DNA from: an uncultured delta proteobacterium
GTDB lineage: Bacteria > Myxococcota > Myxococcia > Myxococcales > Anaeromyxobacteraceae
Direction of reading: 5' to 3'
Assembly (NCBI GenBank): GCA_963828255.1
Contig: CAWHDZ010000031.1
Span: 64,001 to 128,000 of the forward strand
Length of the DNA: 64,000 nt
The translations under genes and the position numbers were made by a program. Position 1 is the first letter of the stretch; each line of letters opens with the position of its first letter. Below the pieces are notes generated by a model. That model was not told the DNA's origin. It worked only from the letters and a program-made list of their open reading frames with translations, and searched no databases. Below are positions 5,098 to 14,849 of this stretch, piece after piece.

Positions 5098-5903
5098 TCA
5101 GCGCCCGAGCGCCTTCGCCAGCGACGCCACGAACCTGCGCACCCGCTCCGCCCGCGCCTTGCGCGCGCCCCCCTCGGCGACGCGCTGGACGATGGCGCTC
5201 CCCACCACGACCCCGTCGGCGATCTTGCCGACCGCCCGGGCCTGCGCCGGCGTTCCCACGCCGAAGCCCACCACCACCGGCACCGGGCTGCGCTTCCGTA
5301 CCGCCTTCACCTTCGCGCCCAGGTCGGCGGGGAGCGAGGTCCGCGCCCCGGTGACGCCGGCCACCGACACGAAGTAGACGAAGCCGGTGGCGGCGTCGCA
5401 GGCGGCCGCCACCCGGGCAGGCGTGGAGGTGGGAGCGAGCAGGAAGACCAGCTTCACGCCCCGTGCAGCGGCGGCGGCGCGAAACGGGCCGGCCTCCTCG
5501 GGCGGAAGGTCGGGCAGGATGAGCGCGTCCACGCCGGAGGCGACGCAACCGTCGAGGAAGCGCTCCTCGCCGTAGGCCAGCACCGGGTTCACGTAGCCCA
5601 TGAGGGCGATGGGGACGGGGGTGCGCTTCCGGACCTCGGCGGCGAGCTTCAAGCAGGAGGCGATGGTGGTGCCGGAGGCCAGCGCCCGCTCCCCCGCCCC
5701 CTGGATGGTCTTGCCGTCGGCGATGGGGTCGGAGAAGGGCATCCCGATCTCGAGGATGTCGGCGCCGCCGGCGGCGCAGGCGAGCGCCATGTCGCGGGAG
5801 GTGGCGAGATCGGGGTCGCCGGCCATGACGTAGGTGACCAGCGCAGCGGTGCCGCGATCCGAGGCGGCGCGGAAGGCGTCGGCGATGCGGTCGGGAGCCG
5901 GGG

Positions 5904-5907
<4 letters not shown>
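5098..5907 (-). CDS. trpA: Tryptophan synthase alpha chain
   Basis: [32 protein letters not shown] motifs; TTG start overlapping the trpB stop. Confidence 0.97.
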
Positions 5908-7186
<1,279 letters not shown>

Positions 7187-7190
<4 letters not shown>

Positions 7191-7810
7191 GGGATGAGGA
7201 CCTCGCGCACGGCGGTGACGAACCGGAGCATCCGGTCGGCGTCTTTCACTCCGGGTGACGACTCGACGCCGCTGGCCACGTCGACGGCCCAGGGGCGCAC
7301 GGCCCGGACGGCGTCGGCGACGTTCTCCGGTGTGAGGCCACCGGCCAGGATCACCGGCGCCGCCTCGGAGACCCCCTCGGCGAGCGACCAGTCGAAGGGA
7401 AGCCCGGTCCCGCCGTAGCCGCGCGACGGCGTGTCGAGGAGGAAGGCCTGGACCTCGTAGGAGAGGAGCTTCGAGAGGGTCGAGACCTGGTCGACCGGGA
7501 CGGCCTTCACCACGGGCAGGGGCAGCCGGGAGCAGAGCTCGGGCGGCTCGTCGCCGTGCAGCTGGAACACCTGGATGCCGGTCTCGGCGGCGATGGCGCG
7601 CATCTCCCCCTCGGACTGGTTCACGAAGACCCCTACCGGGGTCACGAAGGGCGGCAGGCGGGCGATGATCTGCCGGGCCGCGGCGGCCGTGACGTGGCGC
7701 TTCGACTTGGGCCAGAAGTTGAAGCCCAGTGCGTCGGCGCCGAGCCGGGAGGCGAGGAGCGCGTCCTCGATGCGGGTCACGCCGCAGATCTTGATGCGCA
7801 CGAACCTCAT
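7187..7810 (-). CDS. trpF: Phosphoribosylanthranilate isomerase
   Basis: [36 protein letters not shown] at 7810 overlaps the trpC stop. Confidence 0.96.
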
Positions 7811-8592
7811 CGCGCCGCCGCCATCTCCGCCAGGAGGACGCCCGGGTCGGGCGCGCGGACCAGCGCCTCGCCCACCAGGAAGTTCGCCGCCCCGGCGCGG
7901 CGCAGCCGGGCCACGTCGGCCGCGGTGCGGATGCCGCTCTCGGCGACGCCGCGCACCGCGGCCGGGAGCGCGGCCAGCACGACCTCGCTCGCCGAGAGGT
8001 CCACCCGGAAGGTCCGGAGGTCGCGGTTGTTGACCCCCACGATGCGGGCTCCGGCGCGGACCGCCATCTCCGCCTCCGGGAGGTCGTGGACCTCCACCAG
8101 GGCCGAGAGCCCGAGCGCGGCGCACTCGTCCAGGCGCCGGCGCAGGAGGTCGCCCGGGAGGGCGGAGACGATGAGCAGGGCTGCGTCCGCGCCCCAGGCC
8201 CGGGCCTCGAGGAGCTGGTAGCGGGAGAGCACGAAGTCCTTGCGGAGCAGGGGCACCTGGACCCGCGCCCGGGCGGCGGCCAGGTCGTCGAGGGAGCCCC
8301 CGAAGCCGGGGCCGTCGGTGAGGACCGAGACGGCGGCGGCTCCCGCGGTGGCGTAGCGTGCAGCCTGGGCCGGGGCGTCGAGCCCGGAATCGATGGCGCC
8401 GGCCGAGGGACTGGCCCGCTTCACCTCGGCGATGATGCGGACCGGGCCGCCGGGGGGCGAGAGGGCGTCCTCCAGCCGGCGCGGGCGCGGTGTGTCGAGG
8501 GCCCGGGCCTCCAGCTCCGGCTCGGAGAGCACCGCCCGGCGCTCCTCCACCTCGCGCGCCTTCCTTGCGAGGATCTCGGCCAGGATGGTCAT
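7807..8592 (-). CDS. trpC: Indole-3-glycerol-phosphate synthase
   Basis: [37 protein letters not shown] at 8592. Confidence 0.96.
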
Positions 8593-9596
8593 GCCCGGCT
8601 CACGGCGGCGAGCCGCTCGAGCTTCTCCGCGGCGGCGCCCCGGTCGATGGAGTCGGCGGCGAGGAGGACCCCGCTGCGCAGGTCGGGCGCAGCCCCCGCG
8701 GCGACCAGGGCGGCCGAGGCGTTGGCCAGCACCGCGTCGCGCGGCGCGCCCTTCGCGCCGGAGAGGACGTCGCGGGTGATGCGGGCGTTCTCCTCGGCGT
8801 CGCCGCCGGCCAGCGCCGCGGCGGGCCAGCGCGGGAGCCCCAGCTCCTCCGGCGTGATCTCGAAGGTCCGGACCGCCCCGTCCTTCACCTCGGCCACCTG
8901 GGTGACCCCGGTGACGGCGATCTCGTCGAGCCCCTCGCCGTGGACCACGAAGGCGTGGACCGAGCCCAGTGCGGCGAGCACCCCGCCGATGACGGGCACC
9001 CAGCGTGGCTCGTAGACCCCCATGACCTGGTGCCGTGCACCGGCCGGGCTGGCCAGCGGCCCGAGCAGGTTGAAGACGGTGCGGATGGCCAGCTCGCGCC
9101 GGATGCCGGCCACCGCCTTGAACGCGGGGTGAAGCCGGGGTGCGAAGAGGAAGCCGATGCCCACCTCGGCGATGCAGCGCTCCACCCGCTCCCGGGGCGC
9201 ATCGACGTCCACGCCCAGCGCGGCGAGCACGTCGGCCGATCCGCACCGGGAGGAGACCGAGCGGTTGCCGTGCTTCGCGACCACCACGCCGGCGCCGGCC
9301 ACGGCGAAGGCCGCGGTGGTGGAGATGTTGAAGGTGTTCTGTCCGTCGCCGCCGGTGCCGCAGGTGTCCACGAAGACCGCCTGATCCACCCGGACCCGCT
9401 CGGCGCGCTGCCGCATCACCTGGGCGGCGCCGGCGATCTCCTCGACCGTCTCCCCCTTGAGCCGCAGCGCGGCCAGGAAGGCGCCCACCTGGGCCGGCGT
9501 GGCGCCGCCGTCGGCGACCTCGCCCATGAGCTCCACCATCTCCGCGCGGGAGAGGTCCTTCCCGGCGACGAGCCGCCCGATGGCCTGCACGATCAC
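8589..9596 (-). CDS. trpD: Anthranilate phosphoribosyltransferase
   Basis: DTCGTGGDG, NISTT, KHGNRSVSSRCGSAD. Confidence 0.97.
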   Translation of the reverse strand: MIVQAIGRLVAGKDLSRAEMVELMGEVADGGATPAQVGAFLAALRLKGETVEEIAGAAQVMRQRAERVRVDQAVFVDTCGTGGDGQNTFNISTTAAFAVAGAGVVVAKHGNRSVSSRCGSADVLAALGVDVDAPRERVERCIAEVGIGFLFAPRLHPAFKAVAGIRRELAIRTVFNLLGPLASPAGARHQVMGVYEPRWVPVIGGVLAALGSVHAFVVHGEGLDEIAVTGVTQVAEVKDGAVRTFEITPEELGLPRWPAAALAGGDAEENARITRDVLSGAKGAPRDAVLANASAALVAAGAAPDLRSGVLLAADSIDRGAAAEKLERLAAVSRA

Positions 9597-10186
9597 GGCC
9601 GCCTCCCGGCCCGCACGCGGGCCAGCCAGTTGCCCAGCAGCGCCTTGCCGTGGCCGGTCAGCACCGACTCCGGGTGGAACTGCACGCCCTCCACGTCGAG
9701 CTTGCGGTGGGAGAGTCCCATCACCTCGCCCTCGCGCGTCCAGGAGGTCACCGACAGCACCCGGGGGAGCGAGGAGCGCTCGACCACCAGGGAGTGGTAG
9801 CGCCCGGCCTCGAACGGGGAGGGGATCCCGGAGTAGATCCCGTCGCCGCGGTGGAGCACCGGGCTCGCCTTCCCGTGGACGATGCGCTCGTTGCGGATCA
9901 CCTTGCCGCCGAAGGCCTGCCCGATGGCCTGGTGCCCCAGGCAGACGCCCAGGATGGGCAGCGACCCGGCGAGCTCCCGGATGGCCGTGAGGCTCACGCC
10001 CGCCTCGTCGGGGGTGCAGGGGCCGGGCGAGATGACCAGACCGTGCGGGCGGAGCTTCTCGATCCCGGCCACGTCGATGGCGTCGTTGCGGAAGACGCGC
10101 ACGTCTGCGCCCAGCTCGCCCAGGTACTGGACCAGGTTCCAGGTGAAGGAGTCGTAGTTGTCCACGAGGACGAGGCGCGGCTTCAC
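9593..10186 (-). CDS. trpG: Anthranilate synthase component II (glutamine amidotransferase)
   Basis: VDNYDSFT, SPGP, GVCLGHQ, GVQFHPES; GTG at 10186 overlaps the trpE stop. Confidence 0.96.
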   Translation of the reverse strand: MKPRLVLVDNYDSFTWNLVQYLGELGADVRVFRNDAIDVAGIEKLRPHGLVISPGPCTPDEAGVSLTAIRELAGSLPILGVCLGHQAIGQAFGGKVIRNERIVHGKASPVLHRGDGIYSGIPSPFEAGRYHSLVVERSSLPRVLSVTSWTREGEVMGLSHRKLDVEGVQFHPESVLTGHGKALLGNWLARVRAGRRP

Positions 10187-11715
10187 TTTCCGGCCCTCCC
10201 CCGGCGCCGCGTGCGCCGCACCGGCTCGGCGCCCCGCACCGGCGAGGCCTTGCCGTCGAGGTCGCGCGACTCGGCCTGGGCCACCGCCGTGAAGAGGGCG
10301 CGGGCCTTGTTGACCGTCTCCTGGTACTCGGCAGCCGGCTTCGAGTCGTAGACCAGCCCGGCCCCGGCCTGCACCGAGATGCGCCGACCCGACTGCATGA
10401 GCGTGCGGATGGCGATGCACATCTCCATGTCGCCGCCCCGGTCGAAGTAGCCCACCGCGCCGGCGTACGGTCCGCGCCGGGCCGGCTCCAGCTCGTCGAT
10501 GATCTCCATGGCCCGCACCTTGGGCGAGCCGGAGACGGTGCCGGCCGGGAAGCCGGCCCGCAGCACGTCCACCGAGTCGAGCCCGGCGGCGAGCCGCCCC
10601 TTCACCTCGGAGACCAGGTGCATGACGTGCGAGTAGCGCTCCACCGTCTTCAGCTGCGTCACCCGCACCGAGCCGGTGGCGCTCACCCGCCCCACGTCGT
10701 TGCGCCCCAGGTCCACGAGCATGACGTGCTCGGCGTTCTCCTTGGGATCGGCGCGCAGCTCCTCCTCGAGCCGCCGGTCCTCCTCGGGGTCCTTCCCGCG
10801 CTTCCGCGTCCCGGCGATGGGTCGGAGCGTGACCTCGCCGTCCTCGAGCTTGATGAGGGTCTCGGGCGAGCTGCCCACCAGCGCCTGCGTCCCGTTCTGG
10901 AGGTAGAAGAGGTACGGCGACGGGTTCACCCGCCGCAGCGCCCGGTAGACCTCGAAGGGCGGCACCGAGACCTCGGCGTCGAAGCGCTGGGAGAGCACGA
11001 TCTGCTGGCAGTCGCCGGCCTTGACGTACTCCTGGGCGCGCCGAACGGCCCGCTCGAAGGCCTTCCGCTCCACCCGGGGGCGCAGCTCGGCGGCGTGGCG
11101 GTTCGGGGGAGTCCGGCGGTCCCGGAGCGGACGGGAGAGCGCCGCCATGGTCCCGCCGATGCGGGCCAGCGCGGCGTGGTAGAGGGCGCGCGGGTCGTCC
11201 CCCGCCTCGCAGCGGACCTCGGAGATGACGTGCAGCGAGTGGCGCAGGTTGTCGAAGGCGACCACCTGGTCGAAGTCCATGAAGAGGGCGTCGGGGAAGC
11301 CGAGCTCGTCCTCCCGGGCCACCGGGACCCGGGGCTCGAAGAGCTTCACGGCGTCGTAGGAGAGGAAGCCGACGAGGCCGCCCGAGAAGCGGGGGGTGCC
11401 GGGGATGCGAACCGCCTGGTGGCCGGAGAGCTCGCGCCGGATCCAGGCGATGGGGTCGGCCGGTTGCCCGAGCCGCCAGGACATCGAACTCCTGGGGCCG
11501 GCGCCGAGGAAGCTGAAGCGCCCGGAGCGCTCGCCCCCCTCCACCGACTCGAGCAGGAAGGCTTGCCGCTTCCCGCGGGAGAGCTTCAGGAACGCCGAGA
11601 CCGGGGTCTCGGTGTCGGCCTCGATCTCGACGCGCACGGGGATGGCGCGCCCGGGCTTGCACAGGCTCTCGAACGTCGCGAGGTCGGGGGAGGCGCGCAG
11701 GGAGTCAGCGCCAAA
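10183..11715 (-). CDS. trpE: Anthranilate synthase component I; start unresolved (see findings; first canonical in-frame start is GTG at 11637)
   Basis: ETPVSAFLKL, FLLESVEGGE, SSPE, RPIAGTR, EHVMLVDLGRND, FPAGTVSGSPK; TrpE-like sequence (PDLATFESL..IPV) continues upstream of 11637. Confidence 0.95.
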   Translation of the reverse strand, partial: FGADSLRASPDLATFESLCKPGRAIPVRVEIEADTETPVSAFLKLSRGKRQAFLLESVEGGERSGRFSFLGAGPRSSMSWRLGQPADPIAWIRRELSGHQAVRIPGTPRFSGGLVGFLSYDAVKLFEPRVPVAREDELGFPDALFMDFDQVVAFDNLRHSLHVISEVRCEAGDDPRALYHAALARIGGTMAALSRPLRDRRTPPNRHAAELRPRVERKAFERAVRRAQEYVKAGDCQQIVLSQRFDAEVSVPPFEVYRALRRVNPSPYLFYLQNGTQALVGSSPETLIKLEDGEVTLRPIAGTRKRGKDPEEDRRLEEELRADPKENAEHVMLVDLGRNDVGRVSATGSVRVTQLKTVERYSHVMHLVSEVKGRLAAGLDSVDVLRAGFPAGTVSGSPKVRAMEIIDELEPARRGPYAGAVGYFDRGGDMEMCIAIRTLMQSGRRISVQAGAGLVYDSKPAAEYQETVNKARALFTAVAQAESRDLDGKASPVRGAEPVRRTRRRGRAGK

Positions 11716-11728
11716 GAAACACCGTCAT
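11705..11728 (-). other. Mini-ORF MTVFLWR* containing a candidate +1 frameshift site (CTT TGG) into trpE
   Basis: ATG overlaps the panD stop (ATGA); GGTG-TTT-CTT-TGG parallels the prfB site; TTT at 11715-11713 is in the trpE frame (78 nt = 26 codons from 11637). Confidence 0.6.
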
Positions 11729-12120
11729 GCGACCACCCGCCTGGCCGGGCCGGCGATCTCGACCACGTCCCTGGCGACCACCTTGTTCTCCGCGTCCACC
11801 AGCACCACCTTGGGGACGTGGGTGCGGGCCTCCGCCTCCTCGTACTCGGCGAAGGTGGCGAGGATGACCATGTCGCCGGGGCGGTTCAGGTGGGCCGCGG
11901 CCCCGTTGATGCAGATGACGCCGCTGCCGCGCGCGCCCTTGATGGAGTAGGTCTGGAGCCGCGTCCCGCGGGTGATGTTCCACACGTGGACCGCCTCGAA
12001 CTCCAGGATCCCGGCTGCGTCGAGCAGGTCCTCGTCGATGGAGACCGAGCCCTCGTAGTCGAGGTCTGCCTGGGTCACCGTCGCGCGGTGTATCTTGGAC
12101 TTGAAGAGCGTGCGGCGCAT
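11725..12120 (-). CDS. panD: Aspartate 1-decarboxylase
   Basis: [14 protein letters not shown] self-cleavage site, G.R..TY, NGAAA motif. Confidence 0.97.
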
Positions 12121-12314: not shown

Positions 12315-14849
12315 GTGGCGCTCTCCCCCGACGCCGCCGCGCTGGTCCGAGGGGCCGTGGACCAGCTGGGGCTGCTCCTCAGCATCCAGCACGGCCGCTT
12401 CCTCCCGGCCGACGAGCTCGACCGGCTCTACCTCCGGGAGGACTACGCCTCCCTCCCGGCCGTCGTGGACCGGCTCGCCCCCACCACCGGCGGGCCCGAC
12501 CTCCGGGGCGCCGCCCGGCTGGCCCTGGCGGCCCACCCCGCCCTGCACGGCGGGCTCTTCACCGCCTGGATGGGGCCGGGGGGCCGGGGGCGGTCCCTGA
12601 CCGCGCTCTGGATCGGGGCGCTCCGGGGCGCCGGCGTGGAGATGGAGTCCTCGCCCCGGCAGGAGGAGACCCCCTTCCTGGTCGCGCTGGCCCTCTCCGG
12701 AGCGCTCCAGGCAGCCGCGGCAGGGCTGCGGGACGTCCTTCCCCGGGCCCCCCACGACCGCCACCTGCGAACCGCCGCCCTCACCGCCCTCTGGGTGTCG
12801 GCGCGCACGGCGGTGTCGCGGTTCGCACGGGACGGCGGGCTCCGGGACGACGACCCAATGCTCCTGCGCATCGAGGCCGTGGTGAACCCCGCCGCGCTGG
12901 CCGGTGGCCGCGGCGGCCTCTCCGGTGGGGGCTCCACCCTCTACGGTCCGGAGCTCCTGGCCGGGATTCCCCGGGCCGAGGAGCTGGGGACGGGGCTCAT
13001 CGCCGGGGGGGAGCCGGACGTCGTCATCGGGGCGGTGGCGTCCGCGCTGGCCGAGGACGAGGAGGCCTCCCGCAAGGCCGAGGGGGCGGTGGCGCTCTGG
13101 AGGCTCAGGAGCCTGCTCGTCGCGGCCGGCCTGGCCGCCGAGGAGGCCCGGAAGGGCGCCGCGGCCGCCGACCTCCGGTCCGTGCTGCTCGCACCGGGGG
13201 GGCTCTCGCAGGCCATCTCCGACGAGTCGGGGCGACACGACCTGGCCGGCCGCATCCAGGGGGCGCTCTCCGGCGCGGTGGCCGGGGACGGCGCCGGCGC
13301 GCTCGAGCAGGCGCTGCGCGCCCTGCGGGCCTGGAAGCCGCGCGAGCCGGCCACGGCGGTCGGGCTCCGGCCCGACGAGGCGCGGCAGATCTACGGACTC
13401 GCGGCGGCCGGCCTGCTCGCCGACCAGACGCTGGAGCGGCTCGCCCTGCCGGCCCGCCGGGCGCTGGTCCCGCCGTCCGGGGCCGGCACCCCCGACGCGG
13501 AGTGGGAGGCGGGGCGGCTCTACCGGATCTCGGCCCGCCCGGCCCCCATCCTGGTGGCGGCCCGGGAGCTGCCCATCGCCCACCTGTTCGCCGACGTGAA
13601 GGACTTCACCCGGCGTACGAGCCTGCTGGGGCCGGCGTCCATGGCCGAGTTCCTCCGGCGCGAGTTCTACCTGCCCATCCTGTCCGCCGCCAAGGCCCGC
13701 TTCACCGGCATGGAGCACCTGGCCGACCGGGGCGGCGTCTCGGTGAACAACCTGCTCGGCGACGCCATCTCCCTCTCCGGCGACATCGAGGCGCTGGTGT
13801 CGCTCGCCGCCGAGATCCGGCGTCTGCTCTCCGCCTACGAGGAGCGGCTCACCCGGGAGGTCTCCACCACCGCCGTGGCCGGGAGGGTGACGGCGCTCGA
13901 GGAGCGGTTCCGCGGAGAGATCGCGCGGGCCCAGGCCGCGCGGAGCGAGGCCCGGGCCGCCGCCGAGCGGGCCGCGCCGGGCAGCCCGGAGCGCAGCGAG
14001 TCGCTCCGTCGCGCGGCGCTGCACGCCGCCGCCGCGGCGCGGCTCACCGCCGAGATGGAGCGCGACGTGTCGCGCACCCGCGGGGAGGGGCTGGAGGCCG
14101 GGGTCTTCGTCTCCTTCGGTCCGGCGCCGCTGGTGGTGTCGATCGACGACGAGGCCTTCGGCCACAACCGCGTGGCCATCGCCGAGAAGATCAACGAGTC
14201 GGCCCGTGGGACGGCCCGCGCCTCGCCGGCCCGCGCCCGCTCCGACCAGCTCCTCGCCGCCGCTCGCCTGGCCCAGGGCAACCCCGGGCTGCGCCACGCC
14301 TGGAGCCTCTTCATCGGCCAGCCCCTCACGCTCTCCATCCCGCCCGACGCGGCCGCCGACGTCCTCCGGGCGGCCCGGGCCGGCGACATGACCGCCGCGA
14401 TGCGGGCGGTGGCGAAGCCCGTCCGGCGGGCGCTGGAGGCGGCGGCACGGGCCGAGGACGAGGGGTCGGGCGACGTCTACAACGCCGGCGCCGCGCTCTC
14501 CGAGGAGGCGCTCACGGCCTGGCTCGAGGCGGTGGGGACGAAGCGCACCGTGCGCCGCGTGGAGATCGATCCGGCCGAGATCCCCCAGGAGGTCACGCAG
14601 CGCTGGTGGTTCGGAGTGGGGCCCCAGAGCCTGGTGGTCACCTTCCAGGCCGACGGGCGCCCCGCCGAGATGTTCCGGCACGTGGGGCGGGCCTGGTTCA
14701 AGGGGCTCGGCGAGGTGCCGGTCTGGGAGCTCGCCGCCGACACCGGCGGCCCCGCGGCGCTCTTCCAGGCCATGGGCGGGTCCTGGAAAAACGGGCGGGA
14801 GGGGCAGCCGTCCCGCCCGGAGGCGGTCAGCCCTTCGGCGGGTTCTTGA
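12315..14849 (+). CDS. Large protein with a class III nucleotidyl-cyclase-like region; true start probably further upstream
   Basis: HLFADVKDFTRRT, NLLGDAI and IAEKINESAR resemble the FxDxxxFT, GD and vN.AaR cyclase motifs; strong coding bias extends upstream of 12315. Confidence 0.6.
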   Translation: MALSPDAAALVRGAVDQLGLLLSIQHGRFLPADELDRLYLREDYASLPAVVDRLAPTTGGPDLRGAARLALAAHPALHGGLFTAWMGPGGRGRSLTALWIGALRGAGVEMESSPRQEETPFLVALALSGALQAAAAGLRDVLPRAPHDRHLRTAALTALWVSARTAVSRFARDGGLRDDDPMLLRIEAVVNPAALAGGRGGLSGGGSTLYGPELLAGIPRAEELGTGLIAGGEPDVVIGAVASALAEDEEASRKAEGAVALWRLRSLLVAAGLAAEEARKGAAAADLRSVLLAPGGLSQAISDESGRHDLAGRIQGALSGAVAGDGAGALEQALRALRAWKPREPATAVGLRPDEARQIYGLAAAGLLADQTLERLALPARRALVPPSGAGTPDAEWEAGRLYRISARPAPILVAARELPIAHLFADVKDFTRRTSLLGPASMAEFLRREFYLPILSAAKARFTGMEHLADRGGVSVNNLLGDAISLSGDIEALVSLAAEIRRLLSAYEERLTREVSTTAVAGRVTALEERFRGEIARAQAARSEARAAAERAAPGSPERSESLRRAALHAAAAARLTAEMERDVSRTRGEGLEAGVFVSFGPAPLVVSIDDEAFGHNRVAIAEKINESARGTARASPARARSDQLLAAARLAQGNPGLRHAWSLFIGQPLTLSIPPDAAADVLRAARAGDMTAAMRAVAKPVRRALEAAARAEDEGSGDVYNAGAALSEEALTAWLEAVGTKRTVRRVEIDPAEIPQEVTQRWWFGVGPQSLVVTFQADGRPAEMFRHVGRAWFKGLGEVPVWELAADTGGPAALFQAMGGSWKNGREGQPSRPEAVSPSAGS

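Follow-up and report, generated by a model that had tools for sequence, protein, structure and literature searches.

Anthranilate synthase component I (TrpE) is very probably produced by a +1 ribosomal frameshift in the bacterial family Anaeromyxobacteraceae. The site lies on the minus strand of a 64-kb stretch of contig CAWHDZ010000031.1 (hereafter the window, which begins at position C31:64,001), part of a 4.31-Mb genome (G000) assembled in 40 contigs with an estimated contamination of 6.6%. There, a short leader open reading frame (ORF) runs into the sequence CTT TGG C directly before trpE, an arrangement first proposed in a sequence-only reading of the window as a counterpart of the site in prfB, the gene for release factor 2 (RF2), with UGG in place of UGA. 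Comparison of related genomes makes it likely that the shift at CUU-UGG-C is programmed and triggered by scarce charged tRNA-Trp. On balance, we favor the view that the Anaeromyxobacteraceae control tryptophan synthesis by a natural "hungry-codon" switch, a prfB-style cassette in which UGG stands for the stop codon. The features of the junction are as follows.

11725 to 12120, minus strand: panD, aspartate 1-decarboxylase (Pfam PF02261, Asp_decarbox, E 3e-49).
11705 to 11728, minus strand: leader mini-ORF in the 0 frame, ATG ACG GTG TTT CTT TGG CGC TGA (MTVFLWR*), read from the sequence.
11720 to 11723, minus strand: Shine-Dalgarno (SD)-like word GGTG, 3 nucleotides 5′ of CTT and complementary to CACC in the 16S rRNA tail GGATCACCTCCTTTCT.
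11717 to 11719, minus strand: codon that would occupy the E site during the shift (TTT here), variable among 67 genomes.
11710 to 11716, minus strand: invariant heptamer CTT TGG C of the proposed shift, made up of CUU for the P site (would re-pair on UUU), UGG for the A site and a 3′ C.
11705 to 11707, minus strand: 0-frame stop TGA, one codon past TGG and conserved in position, which would end the leader for ribosomes that do not shift.
11698 to 11700, minus strand: CTG codon, four residues before the motif P-D-L in the alignment, a possible weak auxiliary start or a plain leucine codon.
11635 to 11637, minus strand: GTG used as the start by gene callers (484-amino-acid product), inside conserved TrpE sequence.
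10183 to 11712, minus strand: +1-frame TrpE body, GGC to stop (Pfam PF04715 and PF00425).

The panD gene ends GCA TGA, and this TGA (11727-11725) overlaps the leader ATG (11728-11726) as ATGA. TrpE is encoded in the frame of panD, which is +1 to the leader. After the panD stop this frame reads *RCFFGADSLRASPDLATFESLCKPGRAIPVRVEIEADTETPVSAF, and its first ATG, GTG or TTG is GTG 11637, the only near-cognate start before it being CTG 11700. A single four-base step at CTTT, at the fifth leader residue (L5), gives an unbroken TrpE of 514 amino acids (MTVFLGADSLRASPDLATF...) composed of five leader codons and the +1-frame body. The CTT slip codon occupies 11716-11714, and the next codon read in the +1 frame after the shift is GGC (Gly). 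The sequence-only reading had described the overlap of the panD stop with a seven-codon ORF, the +1 offset with no ATG, GTG or TTG before GTG 11637, and a slip from CTT to TTT continuous with TrpE, and all three hold when the frames are read through. From P-D-L onward, the +1 frame has clean coding periodicity (entropy of 0.38/0.24/0.93 bits by codon position in 29 ungapped genomes), and the TrpE protein must therefore begin upstream of P-D-L.

Existing annotations give no consistent picture of this N-terminus. GTG 11637 corresponds to codon V26 of the conserved protein, and the aligned codon is GTA, GTT or GTC in many relatives. The codon lies within TrpE sequence, as had been noted from the window, and is not itself conserved. 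A database protein (P0110) starts there with MRVEIEAD. Gene callers assign these TrpE proteins at least four different N-termini, and the trans-frame N-terminus is absent from the 12 public TrpE records examined (of the best 120 listed), whose starts are inconsistent.

The site is conserved across the family. A DNA search first covered 41 related genomes and located the panD-trpE junction in 23, the genome of the window included. CGGTG-NNN-CTTTGGC or a close variant is present in all 23, and every insertion or deletion between the site and the TrpE body is a multiple of three. The verified family set, to which the counts out of 67 refer, comprises 67 Anaeromyxobacteraceae genomes from 11 genera, again including our own, with the site read in each. 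The family name is taken from those attached to some of the database proteins. CTTTGGC is present in 67/67, as well as in two genomes of a neighboring family (G427 and G326, family f6). The SD-like word is GGTG in 66/67 and GGGG in the other (G160), with GGAG in G326; it varies only among words complementary to the anti-SD, and its spacing is always 3 nucleotides. The E-site codon is free to change (TTT 40, TTG 8, CTA 5, TTC 5, CTT 3, CGT 3, TGT 1, TTA 1, CGG 1), is mostly U-rich and rare, and contains at least two A/T in 63/67 genomes versus 17.8% of codons genome-wide. The GGTG word that had been pointed out 3 nucleotides before CTT is present and kept at fixed spacing in the relatives, and CTT-TGG, the +1 offset and a nearby stop, the combination whose conservation across the family was thought to be informative, recur in 67/67.

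The pattern ATG(or GTG)-ACG-GTG-NNN-CTT-TGG-C is kept across the family with few departures. ATGA has become ACGA in G127 (L182) and G158 (L223), each with an ATG farther upstream in the 0 frame, and GTGA in G117 (L168) and G174 (L228), while ACG is replaced by ATG in G148 (L218). In the 29 ungapped genomes, the 19-nucleotide island ATGACGGTG-NNN-CTTTGGC has zero entropy save for the NNN codon, and third codon positions flanking it on both sides vary by about 0.9-1.3 bits. In a crude set of 1827 long ORFs of the own genome, CTT accounts for 1667 of 67,851 leucine codons (2.5%) and TTT for 374 of 22,903 phenylalanine codons (1.6%), which bears out the rarity judged by eye in the sequence-only reading. 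ACG makes up 29.5% of threonine codons and GTG 52.6% of valine codons, and ACG GTG is nonetheless invariant in most genomes. The presence of CTTTGGC in 67/67 despite the rarity of CTT, the invariant ACG GTG and the freely varying flanks argue that the leader is selected at the nucleotide level; a sequence conserved for its peptide only would be expected to drift to CTC/CTG and ACC. GGTG-NNN-CTTTGG occurs once on both strands of the 4.31-Mb genome, at the trpE site.

The 0-frame stop is a further conserved element. It lies 1-3 codons past TGG in 63/67 genomes and 7-8 codons past in the other 4, and is TGA in 61, TAG in 5 and TAA in 1. Elsewhere in trpE the same frame contains 13 stops in 20,238 codons (40 genomes), and the clustering of stops at the site indicates that this one is selected. 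Upstream, the window has 226 codons of the 0 frame without a stop, yet beside the site this frame closes in every genome. The +1-frame residues just past the site (G-A-D or G-A-A-[DE]) are largely set by the embedded stop (GCT GAN).

The closest parallel is found in the same genome. Its prfB (NCBIfam TIGR00020, 478 bits; C12:66,580-66,700, locus L031, ~1413-1540), outside the window, carries the classical site CGG GGG TCG CTT TGA C 22 codons after its start, with the RF2 body continuing in +1. The trpE site, ACG GTG TTT CTT TGG C, differs from it in the heptamer by one letter and has the same 3-nucleotide spacer and 3′ C, and the GGGGG-TCG-CTT-TGA-C of the own prfB makes the parallel closer than the sequence-only reading had described. 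Both sites combine an SD-like word and an anti-SD tail, a P-site CUU that re-pairs or would re-pair on UUU, a slow A-site UGN and a short 0-frame ORF followed by the functional protein in +1. At trpE that protein has no start of its own, subject to an NTG codon aligned with CTG 11700 in 57/67 genomes. The A-site codon is where the two part: it is the sense codon TGG in 67/67 and not the UGA of prfB, and the molecule sensed would be charged tRNA-Trp rather than RF2. The shift site also lies 5 codons from the start versus about 22 in the own prfB, the SD-like word is GGUG, and the product is a biosynthetic enzyme heading an operon. The regulatory logic would be the same, in that the A-site codon is the sole codon for the end product of the pathway and a shortage of its decoder would yield more product, as it does for prfB. 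From these features, the trpE site is expected to work like that of prfB while standing outside the RF2 autoregulatory family. The UGA of prfB has reportedly been replaced by sense codons to measure decoding rates, by Curran and Yarus and by Sipley and Goldman.

The machinery for such a shift is encoded in the own genome. The 16S rRNA tail GGATCACCTCCTTTCT carries the canonical anti-SD, and genes are present for tRNA-Leu(GAG), a single-copy tRNA-Trp(CCA) and two tRNA-Gly(GCC). Among the 59 tRNAs found by ARAGORN are two tRNA-SeC(tca) genes, one of which may be foreign given the estimated contamination.

In the proposed mechanism, a ribosome would initiate at the leader AUG and proceed until CUU occupies the P site and UGG the A site. 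Were Trp-tRNA to arrive quickly, W-R would be read and translation would terminate with release of MTVFLWR. With an empty A site, the peptidyl-tRNA-Leu(GAG) would re-pair from CUU to UUU, aided by the SD-like pairing and by a weakly bound E-site tRNA, after which Gly-tRNA would decode GGC and translation would continue into TrpE. Weak E-site pairing promotes the RF2 shift. A stimulatory role of the putative SD-like GGUG is assumed, and from the nature of the A-site codon we infer that the charging of tRNA-Trp governs the frequency of the shift.

The own genome was scanned for the same architecture (SD-like word, N2-4 and CTT-T, with a short ORF in the 0 frame and a long one in +1). The scan returned four sites: prfB, trpE and two more, in which the +1 frame offers a start at a distance of 4 and 7 codons downstream. 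Candidate cassettes with another sensing codon (CTT-TAC, CTT-TGT and two CTT-TGA) were set aside, having no SD-like word or having a nearby +1 start. At C31:47,871 on the plus strand, outside the window, a four-codon ORF, ATG GGG ATT CTT TGA T, contains GGGG-N3-CTT-TGA and precedes a 479-codon +1 ORF with its own ATG 7 codons downstream; this is probably a chance occurrence.

The distribution of the cassette follows trpE. A search with the pattern GGTGNNNCTTTGGC matched 87/92 family genomes, including 54/54 of those of high quality, the five misses being 70-87% complete; a reversed-pattern control gave about one chance match per genome, which makes 87/92 an upper bound on true sites. A pattern scan of 401 genomes of the phylum matched the own genome, 63/67 other family genomes and 4/171 genomes of family f6. 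Of the f6 matches, those of G427 and G326, which belong to two genera, keep the layout, that of G329 is a chance match and the sequence of G319 was not read. G427 has ATGACGGTGCGTCTTTGGC, giving MTVRLWPR*, with no panD upstream. The site of G326 (L210) is diverged, ATG TCG GAG TGG CTT TGG C, and its E-site codon is itself a Trp codon, the second in the site. In G326 the 0 frame also stays open far upstream, allowing for a possible 32-amino-acid leader MNDANRSAG...MSEWLWRSTI*. Like the G329 match, the matches in G191 and G248, which belong to other families, lie in unrelated genes and were rejected as chance. The pattern TGACGGTGNNNCTTTGG was also run across the whole genome collection; the matches listed include unrelated phyla, as expected by chance for 14 fixed bases, and were not used. 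Elsewhere in the order, 14 trpE 5′ ends from other families were examined, and 0/14 have the cassette at the gene start; all begin with ATG or TTG near an L-x-x-F helix (e.g., MSLASFERL). Within the family, G090, G093, G104 and G127 have no PanD C-terminus upstream, as judged by eye from the DNA with no family search, and keep the cassette. Because it is kept in these four genomes and in G427 without panD upstream, the cassette, by this comparison, travels with trpE and not with panD.

No other known type of tryptophan regulator is apparent at the junction. Between 10800 and 12800 there is no Rfam match at E<=1, T-boxes included, and likewise no Rfam sign of a TRAP leader, for which (G/U)AG repeats were not searched separately. 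A single-sequence fold around the site is no more stable than shuffled sequences (z +1.11), and alifold of 39 distinct sequences gave -2.4 kcal/mol with no covariation and no consensus structure. A downstream stimulatory RNA structure was rejected on these two results. The prfB site is likewise without an accompanying RNA structure. A trpL-type attenuator was also considered and rejected, as the leader overlaps the TrpE coding sequence, with no room for or sign of terminator and antiterminator hairpins. The trpL attenuation of proteobacteria does resemble the proposed switch, in that Trp codons stand in a short leader ORF before trpE and the pace of the ribosome at UGG serves to sense charged tRNA-Trp. 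The differences are that there is a single UGG here rather than a tandem pair, that hairpins are absent, and that the output would be a change of reading frame fusing the leader to TrpE instead of transcriptional read-through. Every family leader peptide in the first 40 genomes has a single TGG and thus lacks tandem Trp codons; G326 of family f6 has TGG-CTT-TGG.

Several observations weigh against a tryptophan-triggered shift as the sole source of TrpE. The codon aligned with CTG 11700 is NTG in 57/67 genomes. For 33 of these CTG is the sole option, and the other 24 offer a canonical start, either GTG or TTG in this position or, in G127, an ATG/GTG lying upstream; in those genomes TrpE could begin there in part or entirely. 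Leucine usage in the own genome (CTC 56%, CTG 40%) would predict more CTC and leaves the NTG bias unexplained. The shift is not strictly required in G127, which has an in-frame ATG 15 codons upstream in the TrpE frame, or in G326, which has upstream in-frame GTGs. The GGUG pairing amounts to only 4 bp with CACC and is offset by two bases from the register of the prfB GGGGG. The CTT-TGG dicodon alone is tolerated, with 10 in-frame occurrences in the crude gene set versus 23.4 expected. A sense codon is normally decoded fast, and basal shifting may be low. Finally, counts over related genomes are not independent, and an insertion or deletion at the RNA level is excluded by argument alone. The deficit of CTT-TGG was itself tried as evidence for avoidance and is uninterpretable, since CTG-TGG is likewise depleted (111 versus 379 expected).

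An unlikely alternative is a constitutive programmed +1 frameshift of set ratio, or "corrective" shift, whose efficiency is indifferent to tryptophan supply. All of the structural evidence for a shift fits this equally well, and since UGG is the only Trp codon, its invariance may reflect the need for a moderately slow codon read by a single-copy tRNA. Such a shift does not account for the position of the cassette on the first gene of the Trp pathway, with a Trp codon in the A site in 67/67 genomes and in two outside the family. Nothing comparable is found at other genes of the own genome except prfB, itself a sensor, and unless it brought some regulatory advantage it would be difficult to see why 11 genera retain a fixed handicap, with its adjacent selected stop, on an essential biosynthetic gene.

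Quite improbable is a start of TrpE at the NTG codon (CTG 11700; GTG or TTG elsewhere) by termination-reinitiation, which would make the leader a coupled upstream ORF and its likeness to prfB incidental. The NTG bias described above speaks for this, the 0-frame stop a few nucleotides upstream provides a geometry suited to reinitiation, and public annotations of A. diazotrophicus (MTPKPDL) and A. paludicola (MKPLPDL) start at this codon. The NTG codon, as far as the alignments tell, cannot be the general TrpE start, because 10/67 genomes from three genera have a non-start codon there (CTC, GTC, GCG, CGC or CCG) with trpE intact, and have no ATG, GTG, TTG, CTG or ATH between the upstream stop and P-D-L. 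In the 33 genomes with CTG only, no clear SD precedes it, and CTG is a very poor initiator. Reinitiation also leaves unexplained why the rare CTT never varies, why a C follows TGG, why the E-site codon is U-rich and why an anti-SD-complementary word, be it GGTG, GGGG or GGAG, stays at 3 nucleotides. Its logic would be inverted as well, with more TrpE made when tryptophan lets the leader finish, and the NTG would be hidden beneath any ribosome stalled at UGG. Under a frameshift, ribosomes fresh from termination may use the NTG codon as a weak start and set basal TrpE, or the codon may reflect another constraint.

Read-through of the panD UGA (context UGA-C) to give a PanD-TrpE fusion is very doubtful. 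In its favor, panD and trpE share a frame with only TGA between them, and in one database protein (P0006) a single ORF runs from PanD into TrpE, Cys taking the place of the panD stop (...RRVLACRCFFGAAAV...). P0006 could be a variant that occurs in nature or stem from faulty sequencing, and the slip-site letters are still present in it. The cassette is kept without panD upstream in G090, G093, G104, G127 and G427, the fusion frame reads C-x-F-G with the rare TTT and gives no reason for an invariant CTTTGGC, and the selected 0-frame stop would be without a role.

It is hardly credible that the arrangement stems from an assembly or sequencing error, from a recent frameshift mutation (a pseudogene) or from transcriptional slippage restoring the frame: the assembly is fragmented and its estimated contamination leaves some room for error, but 67 independent assemblies agree, single-contig genomes included, trpE is intact with coding periodicity, and the T run is only 3 nucleotides, shorter than the runs on which polymerases are known to slip. 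Independent DNA agrees with the assembly. The site is bridged by Logan contigs (11528-11748, 11552-11950, 11563-11832 and 11681-11827) of four DNA runs, each from a different study, although the source sample of the assembly may be among these runs. The contigs have zero inserted or deleted letters anywhere and zero substitutions between 11681 and 11751. The sequence-only reading had singled out the bases of the site for confirmation in raw reads and had named a one-nucleotide insertion or deletion, one that would put the ATG in frame with trpE, as a finding that would refute its proposal; no such change is present in these contigs or in any of the relatives, the same arrangement being found in 66 other family assemblies.

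A programmed frameshift at trpE, rather than these alternatives, would be unusual among known systems. To our knowledge, sensor-type programmed +1 frameshifting is textbook material for two circuits only, RF2 in bacteria and antizyme in eukaryotes. A full-text literature search, with most subscription journals outside its coverage, returned no frameshift in trpE and no amino-acid-sensing frameshift in a bacterial biosynthetic gene, in keeping with the sequence-only reading, which knew of no natural case. The pertinent passages of a 2016 review (PMC5009743), covering prfB, antizyme, Ty1 CUU_AGG_C and hungry codons, state that for functional trans-frame proteins from starvation frameshifting "no examples are known". 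In the parts of PMC3082878 on E. coli pheL, frameshifting is judged incidental and its role is called "unknown in biosynthetic operon expression". The main text and two supplementary files of the GeneTack study (PMC3711429) contain no mention of anthranilate, trpE or Anaeromyxobacter; one further supplementary file, unsearched, may bear on this. Among the terms searched in a prfB survey (PMC12421855), none led to a sense-codon variant of the site. The features described here support the trpE site as a prfB-type sensor frameshift in which the stop is replaced by a Trp codon, and no description of one in bacteria was found.

Partial likenesses exist to several of these systems. The Ty1/ABP140 site of yeast, CUU_AGG_C, has the same CUU-NGG-C form, and its peptidyl-tRNA-Leu slips while a sense codon awaits a scarce tRNA; it is eukaryotic, has no SD element, is slow through a rare tRNA, and is not described in the relevant passages as an amino-acid reporter or as controlling such a pathway (PMC5009743). 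Hungry-codon frameshifting in starved E. coli, studied by Gallant and co-workers, likewise involves an empty A site and a limiting aminoacyl-tRNA, but is treated there as an error or laboratory phenomenon (PMC5009743). The CCC_UGA site of pheL also gives a +1 shift, in the leader ORF that heads an operon for amino-acid biosynthesis; it differs in shifting at a stop codon, being incidental according to the authors' account, and not building the enzyme (PMC3082878). The antizyme +1 shift likewise both senses a metabolite (polyamines) and carries out the feedback on it, the functional product being encoded in +1 behind a short ORF1; it is eukaryotic, shifts at a stop codon and, as summarized in the review, responds to a metabolite acting via the nascent peptide and the ribosome (PMC5009743). 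For antizyme a high level of the metabolite induces the shift; for trpE a low level would.

Downstream of trpE, the window contains the rest of the pathway:

5098 to 10186, minus strand: rest of the trp operon after trpE (Pfam matches and ORF coordinates).
10186-9593, minus strand: trpG (Pfam), whose GTG start overlaps the trpE stop as GTGA.
9596-8589, minus strand: trpD (Pfam).
8125-7187, minus strand: ORF with a PRAI (trpF) domain (Pfam).
7190-5904, minus strand: trpB (Pfam).
5907-5098, minus strand: trpA (Pfam).

Overlaps of 4 nucleotides are present at the junctions read, trpE/trpG, trpG/trpD, PRAI-ORF/trpB and trpB/trpA. As trpG, trpD, trpB and trpA thus overlap their upstream neighbors, the switch might, at one further remove from the sequence, also raise the downstream trp genes by translational coupling. 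On the other side of the junction, an 844-amino-acid ORF (12315-14849, plus strand) is divergent from panD and has no Pfam family at E<=1e-5.

For the annotation of the family, the TrpE N-termini now on record are inconsistent and mostly truncated. If the switch operates as proposed, it would join attenuation, T-boxes and Trp-binding proteins as another class of amino-acid sensing, and its 19 nucleotides could serve as an amino-acid-responsive translational part in synthetic biology. It would also supply an example of a functional trans-frame protein induced by starvation, for which the relevant passage of PMC5009743 has none. The family includes named, apparently cultured species of Anaeromyxobacter, and the parts of the switch are few and each mutable, which makes the question of whether cells exploit hungry-codon frameshifting directly testable at trpE.

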